IMG/VR virus record: IMGVR_UViG_3300033070_001299
Coordinates: 989 to 64,988 of that record
Source of the DNA: a virus
Lineage: Duplodnaviria > Caudoviricetes
Length of the DNA: 64,000 bases
Reading direction: 5' to 3' (one strand)
Both the position numbers and the translations under genes were made by a program. Positions within the stretch are counted from its first letter, which is position 1. The number at the start of each line of letters is the position of its first letter. The notes beneath the pieces are model-generated. The model was not told the origin of the DNA. It was given only the letters and a program-made list of their open reading frames with translations, and searched no databases. Below are positions 7,330-63,437 of this stretch, piece by piece.

Positions 7330-7380
7330 TCCGGGGAGCGCGCAGGCGCGCCAGCGGGTAGGATCGGGCCCGAGGTGAAC

Positions 7381-9591
7381 ATGGGCCTGTGGGACCGCCT
7401 GACCGCCCCCTTCCGCCGCCGCCGCGACGCGCCGCCCCCTGCTGCCCCCGCTCCAGCTCCGCCGCCGCCCACGGGCCCGGACGGCGAGCTGCTCCCAGCG
7501 CTGCCCGCCAAGCGGCCCACGCGCCGAGACGCCGCCGAGCGCGGCGGCACGCCAGCGCCGGGCGAGCGGTGGGCGATCCGGGCGATCCGCCAGATCGCGC
7601 GGCGCTACGACAGCATCGTCAACGCCCTGTCCGGGCTGGGCGGGAGCAACGACAAGGGCACGGCCGGGCGGCCCGACCGCACGCGCATGCCCCTGGACTT
7701 CACCGAGCTTACGAGCCTGTTCCGGTTCAACGGCTACGCGACGCGCTTCGTGACGATCCTGCCCGAGGAGGCCACGCGCAAGGGCTGGCGGATCGACGAC
7801 GGCACGCCCAACGTCGCGCTCATGGAGGCGGAGGACAAGCGCCTCGGGATCCCGGGCGCGGTGCGCGAGGCCACCACCTGGGCGCGGCTCTACGGCGGCG
7901 CCGTGATCCTGATCGTGGTGGACGAGGACGTGCCACCGGAGCTCCAGGACCGCCCCGGCGACGTGCTGCGCACCCCCCTCGACTGGAGCAGGGTGCGGCG
8001 CGTCCTGAACCTGGTCGTCATGGACCCCAGCGAGGCGCAGCCCTTCGTCTATGAGAGCGACCTGCGCTCCCCGCGCTTCCGCCACCCGCGGCTCTGGCAG
8101 GTGAGCCCCAACGCCAACGGCGTCCTGGCGGGCGGCCGGATCGTCCACCACACGCGGATCCTGTACTTCGGCGGGCGCAAGCTGCCCGCGACGATCCGGC
8201 TGGTCAACCAGGGCTTCGACGACAGCATCCTGGAGGCCGTGTGGGACCAGGTCCGCAACAAGACCAGCATCGATCAGGCCGGAGCGCTGATCGCGCAGGA
8301 GCTGAAGCTGAACGTCGTCAAGATCGAGGGGCTGGCGTCGCTGTCTACCAGCGATCAGGCGGATCTCTTCGAGATGCGGATGAAGATGCTCGCCAAGAGC
8401 AAGTCCCTGAACAACCTCGTGCTGATCGGGGACGGCGAGACCTTCGAGAGCCTGTCCACGCCAATGTCCGGCTACGAGAACCTGGACGCCAACAGCCGCG
8501 ACGCGCTGGCCGCGGTCTCCGCCCTCCCTCAGACGGTCTGGTTCGGCGACACGGCCGGCGTCCTGGGCGGGGACGCTGGCGCCACGCATCGGCCCCTGTG
8601 GGCCAACGTGGTCGCCGCCTGGCAGCACGACAACCTCGACGATCCCCTGACCTACCTCTACCGGGGCCTCTACCTGTCCAGCGAGGGCGTCACGCACGGC
8701 GTCGAGCCGGCGAAGTGGAAGATCGTCTACCTGCCCCTCGACGAGCTGACCGAGAAGGCCCAGGCCGACCTCGAGCTGGTGCAGGCCCAGGCCGACGCCA
8801 CCCGCGTCCAGGCCGGGATCCTCCCGCCCGAGCACATCGCGCGCAGCCGCTACGGGCCCGCCGGCTACCGGACGGAGCTGCTCCCCTACGACCCCGAGGC
8901 CGAGGACGCCGCCCAGCTCGCGGCCGCACGCCAGCGCCAGGCGGAGCTTGAGGCGGCGGGCGGCAACCCCGGTGCTGGGGCGGGCGGCGGCGGGCAGCCC
9001 CAGCCCAGCCCAGCGCCCACCGACGAGGGCACGCCGCACCGCGACGCGCTGCCCGGCGAGCGGACGGCCTATATCTACGCCGAGCCGAGCGACATGGCGG
9101 CGTGGAGGGCCGCCCAGGCCGCCGTCGAGGCCGTGGTGCCTCTCCAGGGCTACCGGCCCGAGAGCGGCCGGCTGGTGCGCGGGCACGTCACCGCCCTGTT
9201 CTTCGGGCCCGTGCCCGAGCGCGCCGCGGTGCCCCTGGCCTACCAGACCGGCCAGCAGGCCCGCCTCATGCTGGGCTCGCCCCTGTTGGTGCGCGGCCTT
9301 GAGCTCTGGCCCACCGAGGACGGCCGCACCGTGGTCGTGCTGGCGCTGGACGCGCCGGCCATGGACGCCGCGCACCAGGGCCTCGCCGCGAGCTGCGCGC
9401 GCTGGATCGCCGTGGACCCGCCGCCGGGCGGCTACCGCGCCCACGCGACGCTCGGCTTCGTGTCCGGGCTCACCGAGGAGCAGCGCCGCGGCCTGCAGGC
9501 GCTGGCCGTGCCCCCCAGCCTGGGCACCGTGGCGCGCGTGGCGTTGTCCCGTGGGAGCGAGGACGTTGTGAGCAGCAGCGCCGCGCGGTAG
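7381..9591 (+). CDS. portal protein (DUF1073-type) fused to C-terminal 2H phosphoesterase domain
   Basis: NGYATRFVTILPEEATRKG, WARLYGGAVI, IVHHTRI, DSILE, LPQTVWFG portal motifs; after a G/P-rich linker, HVT (9184) and HAT (9442) 2H motifs. Confidence 0.85.
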   Translation: MGLWDRLTAPFRRRRDAPPPAAPAPAPPPPTGPDGELLPALPAKRPTRRDAAERGGTPAPGERWAIRAIRQIARRYDSIVNALSGLGGSNDKGTAGRPDRTRMPLDFTELTSLFRFNGYATRFVTILPEEATRKGWRIDDGTPNVALMEAEDKRLGIPGAVREATTWARLYGGAVILIVVDEDVPPELQDRPGDVLRTPLDWSRVRRVLNLVVMDPSEAQPFVYESDLRSPRFRHPRLWQVSPNANGVLAGGRIVHHTRILYFGGRKLPATIRLVNQGFDDSILEAVWDQVRNKTSIDQAGALIAQELKLNVVKIEGLASLSTSDQADLFEMRMKMLAKSKSLNNLVLIGDGETFESLSTPMSGYENLDANSRDALAAVSALPQTVWFGDTAGVLGGDAGATHRPLWANVVAAWQHDNLDDPLTYLYRGLYLSSEGVTHGVEPAKWKIVYLPLDELTEKAQADLELVQAQADATRVQAGILPPEHIARSRYGPAGYRTELLPYDPEAEDAAQLAAARQRQAELEAAGGNPGAGAGGGGQPQPSPAPTDEGTPHRDALPGERTAYIYAEPSDMAAWRAAQAAVEAVVPLQGYRPESGRLVRGHVTALFFGPVPERAAVPLAYQTGQQARLMLGSPLLVRGLELWPTEDGRTVVVLALDAPAMDAAHQGLAASCARWIAVDPPPGGYRAHATLGFVSGLTEEQRRGLQALAVPPSLGTVARVALSRGSEDVVSSSAAR

Positions 9592-9606
9592 CGGATCAAC
9601 TATTTT

Positions 9607-9658
9607 CGCCGTGGTGGCGATTGCAGCCTTGCGCGCGTCGCCACCGTGGCGTATATGT
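9607..9658 (+). promoter_or_regulatory. operator-class promoter TTGCGC-17-TATATG
   Basis: -35 at 9629, -10 at 9652; operators CGCCACCGTGGCG at 9639 and CGCCGTGGTGGCG at 9607. Confidence 0.8.
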
Positions 9659-9697
9659 CGTTCACCAGCGGCGAGGACGCCGCGCAGGAGAACGACC

Positions 9698-10033
9698 ATG
9701 CCCGCCACCGCTTCCGCCTCCTACAACAAGCTCCGCGACGGCTCCTGGGGAATCAAGGTCCAGGGCAGCGCCAAGCCCGGCGACCGCATCACGGTCACCA
9801 AGCGCGACGGCTCCAGCAAGGTCGAGACGGTGGACAAGGTCGTGTGGTCCGGCAACGGCGTCGCGATCTGCTCCGTGATCGAGACCCGCGGCGCCTCCAG
9901 CAGCAGCTCGGGCGGCCGGCGCAACGCACACGGCAACACCAGCCGCGCGCCCGCCGGGACCTACGAGTGCGAGGAGTGCGGCGAGTACGTGCGGCGCGGG
10001 ACGCGCTGCTGGGAGACCGGGCACACGCACTGA
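9698..10033 (+). CDS. small beta-barrel protein with C-terminal Zn-ribbon-like motif
   Basis: GGAGAACGACCATG start; YNKLRDGSWGIKV..PGDRITVTKRDG; CEEC..C..H tail. Confidence 0.75.
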   Translation: MPATASASYNKLRDGSWGIKVQGSAKPGDRITVTKRDGSSKVETVDKVVWSGNGVAICSVIETRGASSSSSGGRRNAHGNTSRAPAGTYECEECGEYVRRGTRCWETGHTH

Positions 10034-10257
10034 TCCTGATCACACCCGGCCCGCTGGGGCCATGGAGTAGCGAGGTGCCGATGCTCTGATTTTCCCCGGC
10101 GGTCCTACCAGACAGCCGCCGGGCCGGCGCGCAAGCCCTCTCCGAGTCTGGCGGGGAGGTGAACGTCGGGGGCTGCCGTGTAAAGCCCCTCGGTGCGGGA
10201 GCTGCCGACCAGCTCCCCCTTCTTCCCCCGACCAACTTCCTCCCGTTGGAGACTGCC
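10034..10257 (+). other. structured intergenic region / candidate cis-regulatory RNA
   Basis: Hairpins 10095-10123, 10169-10189, 10197-10217 (then a pyrimidine tract) and 10232-10249 (overlaps GGAG RBS). Confidence 0.4.
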
Positions 10258-10998
10258 ATGATCCGCTCTGTCATCCTGACCCTCGCCCTCCTCTCCGTCC
10301 CGACCAGCGCGCTCGCGGACGACGGCGGCGCGGCGGGCCTTCCGCCCTGGGCCTCCGCTCTCGTCACCCTGATCAGCCTCGGCGCTGGCGCCCTCGCGGC
10401 GACTGCCGGCACCAAGAAGCGCATCGAGGCCAGCATCGACGCCAAGGTGGAGGAGCGCGTGGGCGCGCGCCTCGGCACCTTCAGCCAGCTCGCCCAGCAG
10501 GCGGACCTCGCCGGCCTCGTCCGGCGGGAGATGGAGGTGATCGTGGTCAACGCCGACGGCGACCGCGTGTGCGAGATGGGCCTGCGCGAGCAGGGCTGGC
10601 GCAAGGTGCGCACGGCGAAGATCACGCAGATCCCCGAGGCCAGCGGCCCGCCCAACGCCCGCGTCGAGCCGGACCAGGTCGAGGTCGGCCGCGCCACGCT
10701 CACCTCCCAGGGCGAGGCCATCGACGCGGTCAAGGAGACCGAGCTGATCATGTTCGACCGCCTGGGCGGCCGCACAGTCCAGGCGGTCGCGAAGTGCCTG
10801 CCCCGCCACGGCTACGCGGCCTTCACGCGCGGCTACCTCGACATCCCCAGCCCGGAGGTCCGCGACCGGGTGAGCTTCGGCAACACCCCGCCCAACGCGC
10901 AGTTCTGGCTCGAGGCCACCGCGATCCGCATCTACCGGGCCACGCAGGCCGACCCCATGGGCAAGGCGCCCCGGGCCTGGTTCTCGACGGGGAGCTGA
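10258..10998 (+). CDS. membrane-anchored protein (signal peptide + TM + coiled coil + receiver/Rossmann-like domain)
   Basis: MIRSVILTLALLSVPTSALA signal; TM WASALVTLISLGAGALAA; alternating beta/alpha C-terminal domain. Confidence 0.7.
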   Translation: MIRSVILTLALLSVPTSALADDGGAAGLPPWASALVTLISLGAGALAATAGTKKRIEASIDAKVEERVGARLGTFSQLAQQADLAGLVRREMEVIVVNADGDRVCEMGLREQGWRKVRTAKITQIPEASGPPNARVEPDQVEVGRATLTSQGEAIDAVKETELIMFDRLGGRTVQAVAKCLPRHGYAAFTRGYLDIPSPEVRDRVSFGNTPPNAQFWLEATAIRIYRATQADPMGKAPRAWFSTGS

Positions 10999-11007
10999 TC
11001 GACCGAC

Positions 11008-11036
11008 TTGCGCCATGGCGGCGCCCGCGCTACCCT
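11008..11036 (+). promoter_or_regulatory. promoter TTGCGC-17-TACCCT
   Basis: Exact 17-bp spacing; precedes a 380-nt non-coding stretch. Confidence 0.65.
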
Positions 11037-11040
11037 GGGG

Positions 11041-11410
11041 GCAGGTGCGCATCCTACTCCCGGCCGCCACCTGGGCCGGGCCCCATTGAGGCTCCGCTGG
11101 CGTACCAGCTCTTTTCAACGCTGTAGCAGAGAGGCGCAGAAGCGCGGGAACCCCCAGGGCCAGCAGCCCCGGCCCGCGCGAAGAAGCTGCCTCCCCGGGC
11201 AGGCGGGCAACCGGCCTGTCAGGTGGACCTCCCGAGCTGGCTTCGCCAGCACGAGCGCTTCCGGCGGTCGTCAAGGGTCGGGCGATACCCCGGGGACTAC
11301 ACGCAGGTTGTCGGCGCCCCGTCGGACTTCGGTTCGGCGGGGCGCTCGCCGTTGGGCTGGCGCGCGGCCGCCCCAGCGGGCTATCGTGTCGTCGCACACC
11401 TGCGCGGAGA
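11041..11410 (+). ncRNA. candidate ~360-nt structured RNA (ncRNA or long regulatory 5' leader of the head operon)
   Basis: 14-bp stem with G-U pairs and C(UUCG)G loop 11314-11345; GNRA hairpin 11204-11213; stems 11059-11080, 11096-11109, 11142-11179, 11236-11250; terminal pairing 11041-11047 with 11397-11403. Confidence 0.55.
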
Positions 11411-11416
11411 GCCCCC

Positions 11417-12019
11417 ATGCCCAACCACGACCGCCCCGCCGCCCCCGTCGTCCCCTCCCTGCGCGACCGCCTCGCGGTCGGATCGCGCGTCTGCAAGCGC
11501 CTCGGCTACGGGCCGCACCAGCTCGGCGCCACGATCATCGCCCTGGCGCTCCTGGCGGCGGCGAAGGCCGGCGTCGACGTCCTGGACAGGACCACCGAGG
11601 ACGAGCTGGTGAGCGCCGGCCGCGAGGCCGAGAAGGCGATCAAGGCTACGCTCGGCCAGCCCGTGGACCCCGCCGCCGTGGTGACCGCGCTGGTCGAGGT
11701 GGCCGGCCTGCGCATGGCGGCGGCGCACGAGGCCCAGGCCGAGGCCCGCTGGCGCTCCCGCGAGGAGGAGCTGGCGCGGACGGAGGGCGAGGCCATCGCC
11801 GCCCGGGAGCGTGCCCGCCTGGAGGCCGCGGCCGCCGAGGAGGCGGAGCGCGAGCGTGCCAGGGCCGAGCGGGAGGCGGCCGAGCAGCTCGCGGCGCAGC
11901 AGGCCGAGGCCGAGCGTGCCCGCCTGGAGGCCGCGGCGCAGGACCAGGGCGGCGGCGACCCGCTGGACGAGCTGGGCGAGGACCCCGCCGCCAAGCCCCC
12001 CACGCCCCGCAAGCGATAG
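11417..12019 (+). CDS. hypothetical coiled-coil protein
   Basis: GGAGA RBS; E/A/R-rich heptads. Confidence 0.7.
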   Translation: MPNHDRPAAPVVPSLRDRLAVGSRVCKRLGYGPHQLGATIIALALLAAAKAGVDVLDRTTEDELVSAGREAEKAIKATLGQPVDPAAVVTALVEVAGLRMAAAHEAQAEARWRSREEELARTEGEAIAARERARLEAAAAEEAERERARAEREAAEQLAAQQAEAERARLEAAAQDQGGGDPLDELGEDPAAKPPTPRKR

Positions 12020-12022
12020 GCC

Positions 12023-12829
12023 GTGCTCGGGCTGGCCCCGCGCAGCGACGCCGCCCGAGGCCCCGTGCCCGGCGGGCGGCCGCTGTTCCCCAGCGCGCTC
12101 GAGGCCCGCTACCAGCGCGACCTCCTGCGCCGCACGCACGGCGCCTCCGAGCTGCTGCACGAGGCCATGCTGCGCGCCCTGGCCGCCAGCCCGGGGATCG
12201 ACGAGCGCGCCGCGGCCGCGCGCCAGGACAGCGCCGCCAGCGACCTCGCGCGGCTGGTGCGCGTGGTGGACCAGGTGCGCGTCGCGCACGCCGCGGCCTA
12301 CCCGGTCGACGAGGACAAGCTGCGCGCCACCGCCGCCCAGGTGGACCTCTTCACGACGCGGGAGCAGTCCAGGGTCATCCCCACCGCGCCGGCCGTGGAC
12401 GTGTTCAAGACGCGCGGCCTGCTGGACCTCTATACGAGCTGGGCTGGCGAAAATGCTGGGCTGATCACCAGCATCGACGCGGAGTACTTCGACCAGATCC
12501 GCGACGTGATCGTGGGCGCGGTGCGCGAGGGGAGGACCACGCGCGAGATCGCCGGCCTGCTGCGCGAGCGCTACGAGGTGTCGCGCAGCCGGGCGAAGTT
12601 CATCGCCCGCGACCAGATCGCCAAGCTGAACGGCCAGATCACGCAGCAGCGCCAGACCGCCCTCGGCGTGCTGCGCTACCGCTGGTCCACGTCGCTCGAC
12701 GAGCGCGTGCGGCCCACGCACCGCGTCCTCGAGGGCAAGATCTTCGCCTGGGCGAAGCCCCCGTCGGTCGGCCACCCGGGCCAGGACTACCAGTGCAGGT
12801 GCGTTGCGATCCCCATCCTGGACGACTGA
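12023..12829 (+). CDS. minor head/head morphogenesis protein (SPP1 gp7 / Mu gpF family)
   Basis: RAKFIARDQIAKLNG, YRWSTSLDERVRPTH..LEGKIF.W, HPGQDYQCRC. Confidence 0.9.
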   Translation: MLGLAPRSDAARGPVPGGRPLFPSALEARYQRDLLRRTHGASELLHEAMLRALAASPGIDERAAAARQDSAASDLARLVRVVDQVRVAHAAAYPVDEDKLRATAAQVDLFTTREQSRVIPTAPAVDVFKTRGLLDLYTSWAGENAGLITSIDAEYFDQIRDVIVGAVREGRTTREIAGLLRERYEVSRSRAKFIARDQIAKLNGQITQQRQTALGVLRYRWSTSLDERVRPTHRVLEGKIFAWAKPPSVGHPGQDYQCRCVAIPILDD

Positions 12830-16749: not shown

Positions 16750-16780
16750 ACGCCCGCCGCCCCGGCGGGCGTTGTGCTTT
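16750..16780 (+). terminator. intrinsic terminator after capsid gene
   Basis: ACGCCCGCCG-CCC-CGGCGGGCGT 10-bp stem followed by TGTGCTTT. Confidence 0.6.
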
Positions 16781-25991: not shown

Positions 25992-26492
25992 ATGCCCCCT
26001 CGCTACACGACCGCCCTCTGCCTTCTCCTCGCCACGTGTGACGACAAGGCCCCCTGCCTCGCCTGCGAGGACAGTGGCGCCGACGACACCGGCACCCCCA
26101 GCGACACCTCGGACACCAGCGAGACCGGGGAGACGGGCGAGACCGGCACCCCCATCGATCCGTGCGACCTGGTGCCGTGCGACACCGCGGACAGCGTGCC
26201 CGTCCAGCTCGAGCAGCCCTTCCTCGGCCCCTACGTCTGGTTCTGCGATGCAGCCCAGGGCGGCGCCACCTACACCGTCGCGCTCGACGTGGAGATCACG
26301 CCCGAGGACGCGGCCGCCGCGCTGCTGGAGACGGTCTACGACGTGGCCTATGCCGAGGACGCGGGCCTGCCCCCCGCGGTGATCACCACGGGCGTCCCCC
26401 AGGACCCCGACGGGCGGCCCCTGCTGACCTGCACCTGGGACGCCGAGCTGGCCCTGTTCCGCGAGGAGCGGCTGACCTTGCGCGGCGGGTAG
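25992..26492 (+). CDS. putative lipoprotein (moron) with D/T/G/E low-complexity stalk
   Basis: MPPRYTTALCLLLATC signal/lipobox-like; DTGTPSDTSDTSETGETGETG. Confidence 0.65.
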   Translation: MPPRYTTALCLLLATCDDKAPCLACEDSGADDTGTPSDTSDTSETGETGETGTPIDPCDLVPCDTADSVPVQLEQPFLGPYVWFCDAAQGGATYTVALDVEITPEDAAAALLETVYDVAYAEDAGLPPAVITTGVPQDPDGRPLLTCTWDAELALFREERLTLRGG

Positions 26493-26506
26493 GCAGCCGC
26501 TACCCT
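26478..26506 (+). promoter_or_regulatory. late-type promoter TTGCGC-17-TACCCT
   Basis: Restarts baseplate genes; ATG only 8 nt after the -10 box. Confidence 0.55.
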
Positions 26507-26513
26507 GGAGGCC

Positions 26514-26957
26514 ATGAGCACGCCAACCCCGACCGGCTACGACATCGGCCTCGGCGAGGACGGGGACCTCCCCGTCCGGGCGCGCTTCATCACTGGCCTC
26601 GACCTGATCGCCCAGCGCGTGGGCCGCCGCCTGCGCGCCTTCTATGGGGAGTGGTTCGCCGACCTCACCTTCGGCCTTCCCTTCTGGGACTGGATCGCGC
26701 AGAAGCCGCCGCGCGTGGCGGAGATCGGCGCCCTGGTGCGCCGCGCCATCGAGACGACCCCGGGCGTGGTGCGCGTGGACGACTGGACGGGCGAGCTGGA
26801 CCGCGACACGCGGACGCTCACCTACTCGGGCACGATCCGCACCGAGCTCGGCGACGTGGCCGCCACCCTCCTCCCCCTCGGCGCCCCCGGCGCCGGCAAC
26901 CGACAGCCGGCCTACCGGCTGCTGCTGCGCCCCAGGCGCATCGCCCCCGCGAGCTGA
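26514..26957 (+). CDS. baseplate wedge protein (gp25/DUF2634-like)
   Basis: IAQRV.RRL..F.GEWF.D..FGLPF, I..TPGV. Confidence 0.8.
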   Translation: MSTPTPTGYDIGLGEDGDLPVRARFITGLDLIAQRVGRRLRAFYGEWFADLTFGLPFWDWIAQKPPRVAEIGALVRRAIETTPGVVRVDDWTGELDRDTRTLTYSGTIRTELGDVAATLLPLGAPGAGNRQPAYRLLLRPRRIAPAS

Positions 26958-61334: not shown

Positions 61335-61917
61335 GCTGACCGACGAGGTGCGCGCCGCCTTCCTGGCCGCTGCCAAGGTGGGCGCGACGGACGAGATCGC
61401 CGCCGATCACGCGGGGATCGCGCCGTCCACGTTCTACAAGTGGATGGAGCTCGGCCGGGCCGGCCGCAAGCCCTATGCGGAGTTTCTGGAGGAGGTCACG
61501 CGGGCGCGGGCCACCTGCTCGGTCTACGACCTCAACGCGATCAGCGAGGCCAGGACGGGGACGGTGATCGTGACCGACGAGGTGCGCGTGCAGCGCCCCG
61601 CGCGCCGGATCATCCACCCCGACGGCCGCGTGGAGGAGATCGCCGCCTATGAGGAGGTGATCCCCCGCCGCGTGGAGCACCAGCCCGGGGACTGGCGCGC
61701 GGGCGCGCACCGGCTGGCCGTGCGCCACCCGGAGAACTACGCCCGCCAGAAGATCGAGCTCCGGCACACGGGCCCCGGCGGCGGCCCGGTCCAGACCGAG
61801 GGGCGCGTCAAGCTGGACATGAGCAAGCTCCCGCTCGAGCAGGTGCTGGCCCTGGCGGGCGCCTCCAGCGCCGCCGAGCTGGGCGAGGTCGACGAGGCTG
61901 GCGGCGAGGGCCAGTGA
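61318..61917 (+). CDS. terS: terminase small subunit
   Basis: MARPTKLT, AADHAGIAPSTFYKW, DWRA.A..L....PENY; precedes terL. Confidence 0.8.
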   Translation: MARPTKLTDEVRAAFLAAAKVGATDEIAADHAGIAPSTFYKWMELGRAGRKPYAEFLEEVTRARATCSVYDLNAISEARTGTVIVTDEVRVQRPARRIIHPDGRVEEIAAYEEVIPRRVEHQPGDWRAGAHRLAVRHPENYARQKIELRHTGPGGGPVQTEGRVKLDMSKLPLEQVLALAGASSAAELGEVDEAGGEGQ

Positions 61918-63437
61918 CGCTCGCTGGGGCCGACGGGCCGGCGATCCGGGAGGCAGCGCGCGAGGAGGCGGCGCTGCACGTCTACTCGTGGTTCTTCCGC
62001 CGGGCCTGGCGGGAGGTCGAGCAAAACCGGCCGCTGCTGCACAACTGGCACCTCGACCTCGTGGCCGACGAGCTCGACGGCGTGATCGCTGGCCGCGTGC
62101 GCGAGCTGGTGATCTGCATGCCCCCGGGCACGGCGAAGTCCATGCTGGTGTCCGCGCTGCTCATGCCCTACGCCTGGCTGCGCCGGCCGGAGTGGCGCGT
62201 GCTCTGCACGGCGAAGGACCCCACCGTCGTCGCGCGCGACAGCCTGCGCATGAGGACGCTCCTGCGGACGCCCTGGTATCAGGGCCGCGTCGCCGAGCTG
62301 GTCGAGCGCGGGGAGGTTCAGCCCTGGGGCCTCTCGCCTGAGATGCAGGAGCGCATGAACTTCACGAACAGCGCGGGCGGACAGCGCATGTGCCGCTCGA
62401 TCTGGGGCGGGATCACCGGCCACCGCTTCGACGGGCTGATTGTAGACGACCCCTACGACGCCAAGCAGGTGCTCCCCGGCGTCGCCACCCCAGCGCAGAT
62501 CGCCGAGCGCATGGCTGCGGGCGTCTCGATCTACGACAACACGCTGGACAGCCGCGTAGAACCGAAGCACGGATGGAAGATCACGATCATGCAGCGCCTC
62601 GCCGAGGGCGACCTGGCCGGCGAGCTGATCAAGCGCGGCGTGCGGGCCGTGGTGCTGCCCATGGAGCACGACCCGCTCCTGCCCGCGTCGCACCGCCACC
62701 CGCGCGACCCCCGGCGCCGGCCGGGCGAGCTGCTGATCCCCGGCCGCTACGACCGGGCGTGGTGCGACGCACGCAAGCACAAGCCGGGCTTCGGGCGCAC
62801 CTGGGCGGCGCAGTACCAGCAGCACCCCGCGCCTGTGGGCGGGACGCGGTTTAAACGCGAGTGGTTCCAGCGCCGATACCAGGGCGACCCGATCCGCTTC
62901 GCCCGCGGCCTGGACGAGCTGGCCCTGACCGTGGACTGCGCTTTCAAGGACAGCTCGGAGAGCGACTACGTCGTGATCCAGTGCTGGGGCAGGAAGGGAA
63001 CCAACCGCTACCTGCTCGACCAGGTGCGCGGGCAGATGGACCTCCCGGCCACCATCGTCGCGCTCAAGGGCATGGCGGCGAAGTGGCCCCAGGCCCGCCT
63101 CAAGCTGATCGAGGAGAAGGCCAACGGCCCGGCGCTGATCCAGCTCCTGCGCGGGCAGGTGCCCGGCCTGATCGCCTTCAACCCCCAGGCCAGCAAGGAG
63201 GCCCGCGCGCAGATCTCGGCCATCGCCTATGAGGCCGGCGAGGTCTGGCTGCCCGAGGTGCAGTGGGCGCCCTGGCTGCTCGACTTCATCGAGGAGCACG
63301 TTCAATTCCCGCTCGGGGCGAATGACGATCAGGTGGACGCTGAGAGCCAGCTCTTCATCCGGTGGGACGCGGCCGAGCCCGACGCGCTGGAGCGCACCAG
63401 GGCCCAGGCCGGCGGCCTCGCGCCCCCGCGGCGTTGA
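61914..63437 (+). CDS. terL: terminase large subunit
   Basis: ICMPPGTAKS, ITG..FDGLIVDDP, IMQRL..DL, TVDCAFK, IEEKANG, DDQVDA. Confidence 0.92.
   Translation: MTLAGADGPAIREAAREEAALHVYSWFFRRAWREVEQNRPLLHNWHLDLVADELDGVIAGRVRELVICMPPGTAKSMLVSALLMPYAWLRRPEWRVLCTAKDPTVVARDSLRMRTLLRTPWYQGRVAELVERGEVQPWGLSPEMQERMNFTNSAGGQRMCRSIWGGITGHRFDGLIVDDPYDAKQVLPGVATPAQIAERMAAGVSIYDNTLDSRVEPKHGWKITIMQRLAEGDLAGELIKRGVRAVVLPMEHDPLLPASHRHPRDPRRRPGELLIPGRYDRAWCDARKHKPGFGRTWAAQYQQHPAPVGGTRFKREWFQRRYQGDPIRFARGLDELALTVDCAFKDSSESDYVVIQCWGRKGTNRYLLDQVRGQMDLPATIVALKGMAAKWPQARLKLIEEKANGPALIQLLRGQVPGLIAFNPQASKEARAQISAIAYEAGEVWLPEVQWAPWLLDFIEEHVQFPLGANDDQVDAESQLFIRWDAAEPDALERTRAQAGGLAPPRR

Follow-up and report, generated by a model that had tools for sequence, protein, structure and literature searches.

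What occupies positions 10999-11416, the gap between a 279-aa gene and the first gene of the head-assembly operon, is the question raised by this locus of an uncultivated high-GC phage. The window, the whole stretch of DNA analyzed here, spans 64,000 of the 64,988 bp of IMGVR_UViG_3300033070_001299, has 74% GC, and carries essentially all of its confidently called genes on the + strand. Known phages are remote relatives only, with a capsid identity of about 33%. Upstream of the gap lie the portal gene (7330-9591, Phage_portal_3), a 111-aa gene (9699-10033) and the 279-aa gene, which ends at 10998 and matches no known family. Downstream are g200, a 200-aa gene (11417-12019) that opens the head-assembly operon, and a MuF-like gene (12023-12829), followed by genes for a DUF2213 head protease, a decoration protein and the major capsid protein, and the structural-gene stretch downstream of the gap is about 14 kb or longer. 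The large terminase gene is far away, at 61653-63437. A first-pass annotation proposed that the gap holds an undescribed structured RNA with its own promoter, either linked to packaging or assembly, or acting as a conformational switch for head-gene translation. The reading favored here, held with about even confidence, is that 11005-11416 would comprise a phage-type promoter and a structured, cis-acting 5' leader of about 375 nt belonging to the head-assembly operon.

The relatives used for comparison are uncultivated phage contigs from soil and wastewater metagenomes (SRR32380197, SRR32380204, SRR2135036, ERZ28615168, ERZ27282949, ERZ27282940 and ERZ17988280), which were reached via protein look-ups. 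They carry four distinct variants of the element, namely that of the window (identical in L002 and L003), that of L093 (identical in L094), that of L084 (also present unchanged in L090 and L111, with L112 almost the same), and that of L001.

Nowhere else in the window does a stretch as long as 11005-11416 go without codon periodicity, and both the composition and the variation of this region mark it as non-coding. Both flanking genes have a GC3 near 1.0 (0.97-1.0) that is held in one frame. In 11000-11400 the best frame changes along the sequence, with GC3 values that mostly fall in 0.70-0.90 and rise to 0.87-0.90 only over short distances, for example near 11140 and 11230-11300. No GC3 periodicity is found in 10999-11416, in line with the earlier remark that there is no credible ORF here, and the GC content of the gap is as high as that of coding sequence. 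The indels between variants (1, 1, 3-4, 9, 1, 8, 1, 4, 1, 8 and 1 nt) are not frame-preserving. No conserved ORF covers the region, since none is open or conserved on either strand across all four variants. A small ORF or leader peptide was also considered and rejected, as the four variants share no reading frame. Two ORFs that cross the region have no match in Pfam or PHROGs, and ARAGORN detects no tRNA or tmRNA within it.

The promoter that had been proposed for the element is present as described, with TTGCGC at 11008-11013, a 17-nt spacer and TACCCT at 11031-11036 on the + strand, and a predicted start near 11043-11044. TTGC-N18-20-TANNNT matches the window five times, this site included, where 0.8 matches are expected, and the extended -35 context of the promoter, CCGACTTGCG, is common to the other intergenic promoters of the phage. 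The GACTTGCG -35 context, the 17-nt spacer, the TAnnnT -10 and the intergenic location are those of the phage promoter family. The -35 and the -10 positions T1, A2 and T6 are invariant in 4/4 variants, and the homology among relatives starts at the -35, within a few bases upstream. The assignment of 11008-11036 as a credible promoter of the phage's own family is thus well supported by these sequence patterns.

A 13-bp putative operator palindrome, CGCC-A-TGG-C-GGCG (11011-11023), overlaps the -35. Palindromes of the form CGCC-R-N3-Y-GGCG are enriched in the window (35 sites versus 7.1 expected), and examples are found at 2087, 4170, 9639, 11011, 25871, 32652, 34839, 37768, 58805 and 63477. At about ten intergenic sites the palindrome lies between a GACTTGCG -35 and a TAnnnn -10, and its usual placement in these other promoters is abutting the -10. 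The palindrome of the element is 7 bp upstream of that usual place. Its arms are conserved among the variants, and the central triplet reads TGG, CCG, GAG and CCG. A second TTGCGC-17-TACCCT is found at 26478-26516. The end of its -10 is 7 nt upstream of the ATG at 26514, and a transcript from this site would therefore be leaderless; overlapping it is a GGAGG that would serve longer transcripts as a ribosome-binding site.

The hairpins and alternative pairings listed in the first-pass annotation all sit at the coordinates given there. H1 (11059-11089, + strand) has a 7-bp GC stem (11059-11065/11074-11080) followed by the invariant CCCCATTGA. Every variant retains the stem; one of its G-C pairs has become G-U in L084, the loop shows a 1-nt indel, and the local z of the hairpin is -1.7. 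The same stem and tail occur in L109, an unrelated 31-kb phage contig, where CCCGGCC, a loop, GGCCGGG and then CCCCATTGA are found on the - strand (9617-9650), about 30 nt after a gene stop. H2 (11096-11109, + strand) is a weak GCTGG/CCAGC hairpin that a terminator scan lists as terminator-like. It is followed by the T-rich motif GCTCTTTTCAA (11108-11118, + strand), which could be a terminator tail or a boxA-like sequence. The H2 stem is broken in L084, and GYTCTTT is still kept in 4/4 variants.

Invariant block 1 (39 nt, 11114-11152, + strand) is identical in 4/4 variants, and within it 11118-11127 is predicted to pair with 11380-11389 through 9 pairs, all of them invariant. Domain A (11131-11193, + strand) is a set of nested helices in the RNAalifold consensus, including GCGCGGG/CCCGCGC (11142-11148/11173-11179). 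It has a local z of -2.45 on the + strand versus -1.14 on the - strand, and it carries no covariation information because all of its pairs are invariant. The GCAA-loop hairpin (11199-11220, + strand) contains CGG-GCAA-CCG at 11204-11213. In L001 the outer 5' arm of this hairpin is lost to an 8-nt deletion, and a shorter stem, CAGG/CCTG, stays.

The two adjacent hairpins at 11236-11270 (+ strand), one at 11236-11250 (GCTGG/CCAGC) and the other at 11252-11270, carry the compensatory changes found in the element. They form in individual folds of three lineages, and five of their pairs (three and two, respectively) are changed on both sides and still paired. All of these double compensations come from one lineage, L084, among four lineages in total. 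Five compensated pairs were matched by only 1/500 column shuffles, and slid partners give 0-1.

The UUCG hairpin (11312-11348, + strand) consists of a 14-bp stem with two G-U pairs and a C(UUCG)G cap (11314-11345) and a 2-bp extension, and is followed by the tail TCGCCGTT. Invariant block 2 (52 nt, 11293-11344, + strand) holds most of it, and the whole hairpin is essentially unvarying among lineages, giving no covariation signal. Its folding energy is -32.7 kcal/mol (z -4.55) on the + strand versus -23.0 kcal/mol (z -2.58) on the - strand. The hairpin is stable and GC-rich like that of an intrinsic terminator, and it has no U-rich tract; the terminator scan omits it because its tail has only 3 T in 8. 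The core 22-mer, CCGTCGGAC-TTCG-GTTCGGCGG, is found exactly in 14 unrelated metagenome contigs (L095-L108). In nine of these it is followed by a T-run, several times directly 3' of a tRNA gene. Another four have a CCGCCGTT-like tail as in the window and look like one locus from a high-GC organism, and the remaining one (L101) has neither. Since the core recurs as a classical terminator in unrelated contigs, 11312-11348 is better read as a terminator-type hairpin, and the recurrence implies that the stem-loop has either arisen repeatedly or spread. The 3' arm can also pair with 11349-11360 in a weak, G-U-rich alternative hairpin of 12 pairs (11329-11360).

The major capsid gene is followed, after 26 nt, by a 10-bp GC hairpin (16750-16772) whose tail is TTGTGCTTTCC. 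Unlike the UUCG hairpin, it partly has a U-tract. It is likely, from its form and position, an internal terminator or attenuator of the structural operon that late transcription must pass.

A variable hairpin (11349-11379, + strand) follows the UUCG hairpin, and the upper stem is not the same in sequence and register from one lineage to the next. The hairpin re-forms with a different sequence and register in L084 and L001, with one-sided G-U changes, and its local z is about 0 for the window sequence. Invariant block 3 (25 nt, 11377-11401, + strand) runs into the ribosome-binding site, GGAG (11406-11409, + strand), which the consensus fold predicts to be unpaired; the start codon of g200 is at 11417. 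The conformational switch had been proposed for CACCTGCG (11397-11404), and this segment is indeed complementary to both 11041-11047 and 11302-11308. The proposed switch helices are invariant in three lineages and thus give no covariation signal; in L084 the uncompensated change G11402A weakens both pairings. The comparison lends the switch no support.

g200 and the MuF-like gene share a reading frame, with one stop and one codon between them (TAG GCC GTG, 12017-12025). The same junction is present in close relatives (L001:6580-6588) and in L085 (2565-2573). Stop-codon read-through from g200 into MuF was considered and rejected in favor of an ordinary stop-start junction. Because L086 uses a different frame, the arrangement is probably a tight stop-start coupling.

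The stretch upstream of the element, 9592-10998, is variable among close relatives and looks, from its gene content, like an accessory-gene (moron) hot spot. It contains the 111-aa and 279-aa genes in the window and 75-, 80- and 119-aa genes in L093 (706-1555), also differs in L084 (182-541), and is nearly empty in L001 (5361-5583). In every one of these phages, the window included, a conserved operator promoter lies just 3' of the portal stop.

The gene upstream of the element is one of 279 aa in the window and one of 119 aa in L084, L090 and L093, and there is none in L001. Homology among relatives covers the element without interruption as far as the ribosome-binding site and falls away immediately 3' of the ATG, and g200 itself has only 76% nucleotide identity between the window and L001. 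Even L090, a mosaic, keeps the element and g200 together. Its element and upstream 211-aa gene are L084-type, and its genes for MuF, protease and decoration match those of the window at 99-100% identity. This mosaic places a recombination junction near the g200/MuF boundary. Comparison of these arrangements shows the element to be inherited with the downstream gene and not with the upstream ones.

Relatives with a MuF identity of 58% or less have the portal, a small gene and MuF packed together with no gap and no element, and the element is likewise absent from viral-contig relatives of MuF at 49% identity or less. As the more distant relatives are without it, the element is a gain of one small clade. 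A search with g200, both whole and as its N-terminal half, against a collection of 5.8 billion proteins found only one other protein cluster. The region has no blastn match among 50,697 phage records, and exact-pattern scans of viral, metagenome and genome collections with the invariant blocks, by tools that may hold back close relatives, gave no further homologues. One exact-pattern match, in L110, lies inside a coding region and was discarded as a chance hit. A DGR-type or internal repeat was also rejected, as the element is single copy.

Three features together favor a cis-acting leader: the element extends from promoter to ribosome-binding site, it is associated with the downstream gene, and an invariant block separates the UUCG hairpin from the ribosome-binding site. 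The layout of promoter and terminator-type hairpin would also suit an independent gene for a trans-acting sRNA (an RNA moron) of about 300 nt, ended or processed at 11312-11348, with the last 70 nt being an ordinary upstream region. Such an RNA would target transcripts or proteins of the host or of the phage, for instance to counter defence or take over the host. The element does sit at the edge of the variable accessory locus between the portal and head genes, and its absence from distant relatives with tightly packed genes is a pattern that suggests an acquired cassette. An sRNA gene is nevertheless a possible but unlikely explanation. Invariant block 3 lies 3' of the hairpin, by the ribosome-binding site, and is predicted to pair with block 1 and the 5' end; the hairpin has no U-tract; and a search of the rest of the genome gave no significant complementarity. 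The leader and a separate sRNA of about 300 nt are not mutually exclusive.

Element identity between variants is 0.84-0.96. Between the window and L001 it is 0.904, and the four-fold sites of MuF, protease, decoration and g200 show 0.60-0.73 in the same comparison, in which the overall nucleotide identity of these neighboring genes is 0.76-0.875. The element also exceeds four-fold-site identity against the L084 lineage, g200 included, and the comparison with synonymous sites shows a stronger purifying selection on the element. The higher identity of the element could be due in part to more recent exchange among mosaic phages. Recent transfer is not the whole explanation because the conservation is very uneven: the blocks of 39, 52 and 25 nt are invariant, and the linkers between them are variable and indel-rich.

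Recent exchange would be the source of all seeming conservation if the gap were an ordinary intergenic region made up of upstream terminators, a promoter and a spacer. These phages are mosaic, as seen in L090 with its MuF 99% identical to that of the window and its L084-type element, and H1 and H2 lie 60-110 nt after the upstream stop, where terminators are expected. GC-rich sequence also folds well by chance. A uniformly young segment, however, would not have invariant blocks beside indel-rich linkers, nor would such a spacer be expected to have compensatory changes in two hairpins, or an identity above that of four-fold sites in comparisons with L001 and the L084 lineage. An ordinary spacer is therefore judged improbable, more so than an sRNA gene.

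Folding of the region as a whole is not better than chance compared with shuffled sequences (z -1.44 on the + strand and -1.02 on the - strand), and hairpins of 11-13 bp are equally frequent in triplet-shuffled versions of the genome; the UUCG hairpin is the one that stands out. The RNAalifold consensus of the four variants has 118 pairs in 18 helices. Columns that vary make up 15% of the paired and 43% of the unpaired positions, a difference that is biased, as the structure is derived from the same sequences. Most helices never vary, among them the long-range helices 11118-11127/11380-11389 and 11039-11050/11394-11405, and for that reason they carry no covariation signal. G-C to G-U changes are found in four further helices. 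The UUCG hairpin and domain A fold better on the + than on the - strand. The pattern of substitutions shows the element to be structured, with several hairpins kept via compensatory or wobble changes.

The strand asymmetry also bears on whether the element acts as DNA, through protein-binding sites or single-strand hairpins that serve regulation, replication priming or packaging. The operator palindrome at 11011-11023 and several near-palindromic sequences are features that such an element would have. G-U pairs favor the + strand because they are A-C mismatches on the other strand, and the G-C to G-U changes would be likewise. Protein-binding sites conserve sequence and do not co-vary, and packaging or replication signals would be expected elsewhere, with the terminase gene at 61653-63437. 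A function at the DNA level is very unlikely on these grounds.

The Rfam 15 covariance models, among them those for pRNA, riboswitches, ribozymes, GOLLD, ROOL, HEARO, 6S and T-box, give 0 matches when applied to the whole window at gathering thresholds. A permissive search of 10900-11500 returns four chance-level matches (E 1.4-9.3), the best of which is CRISPR-DR20 (16.8 bits versus a gathering score of 42, E 1.4). H1 with CCCCAUUGA does resemble a repeat hairpin with an AUUGA-type tail, as in solitary CRISPR repeats and RNA anti-CRISPRs. The one signal for a CRISPR-repeat identity of H1 is this sub-threshold match, and the element is single copy, with no array. GOLLD, ROOL and HEARO are also long, GC-rich structured phage RNAs found in accessory regions, and none of them reaches threshold here. 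The proposal of an undescribed non-coding RNA holds as far as the non-coding status, credible promoter, conservation, + strand structure and lack of an Rfam family are concerned, and the element is probably a new, clade-specific regulatory RNA judging from these features.

The other half of that proposal, a role in packaging or assembly, is unsupported. The phi29 pRNA is like the element in being a structured RNA that is encoded by a phage close to its morphogenesis genes and has a promoter to itself. A prohead or packaging RNA of this kind, or another virion-associated RNA, is hardly credible here, since only the position in the head-gene cluster and the promoter speak for it. There is no pRNA-like or other Rfam match, and packaging would use a large terminase and a portal of the ordinary type. 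The element is also missing from relatives that share these head genes and is therefore not needed for assembly of this capsid type. Overall, the DNA-level, pRNA-like and ordinary-spacer readings fit the evidence poorly.

The favored reading, a leader acting in cis, can be set beside known phage systems. The late leader of lambda consists of the PR' promoter, a 6S RNA of about 194 nt and the tR' terminator, and is subject to antitermination by Q. It is like the element in having a promoter, a few hundred untranslated nt and a strong hairpin ahead of late structural genes, and also in having a dyad within the promoter. There is no sequence similarity between the two, and the element is conserved over its full length, which the Q mechanism does not need. 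Further, no Q-family gene was found here, and the hairpin of the element has no U-tract. More generally, a partial Pfam scan of about 28 ORFs detected no antiterminator or late activator gene. The put site of HK022 is a cis-acting antiterminator RNA of about 70 nt with two defined stem-loops. As with put, the element would be a structured RNA directly after a phage promoter and could act on polymerase untranslated, but no similarity to put was found.

The T-rich motif after H2 suggests a further comparison. The boxA consensus is GYTCTTTAANA in gamma-proteobacteria (PMC5725501). GCTCTTTTCAA agrees with it at 8/10 specified positions, with the first 7 exact and YC instead of AA at positions 8-9, although this gamma-proteobacterial consensus may not be that of the host. 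As in Nus sites (rrn boxB-boxA-boxC and lambda nut), hairpins are followed by GYTCTTT, about 65 nt after the predicted start. The motif is kept in 4/4 variants with a C/T change at Y, and it is the only such site in the window, in a genome of 74% GC. About 300 further conserved nt are not explained by a Nus reading. A Nus-type antitermination site at GYTCTTT is a lead from motif likeness and not a finding.

If the element is a leader acting in cis, it would set how much of the expression from its promoter reaches the head genes. The most likely form would be transcription attenuation or antitermination around 11312-11348, where the 5' hairpins and GYUCUUU may help polymerase to read through. 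Long-range pairing of the invariant blocks near the ribosome-binding site may in addition tune translation or mRNA stability. It is also possible, but unlikely, that the element represents a new class of phage RNA of 300-375 nt that does more than tune its own operon. One example would be an RNA device that makes polymerase termination-resistant over the structural stretch of about 14 kb without a phage protein, and another would be a trans-acting RNA, set free at the UUCG hairpin, whose targets are the machinery or the defence of the host.

To our knowledge, tailed phages seldom have long, highly conserved non-coding RNAs, and a function is known for few of these. The element is better conserved than the adjoining capsid-assembly proteins and belongs to one small clade of uncultivated high-GC phages, a narrow distribution that limits what can be claimed for it. 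If it does control transcription or translation of the late genes, it would be a new RNA solution to the problem of timing and read-through, which is dealt with by Q in lambda and by put in HK022.
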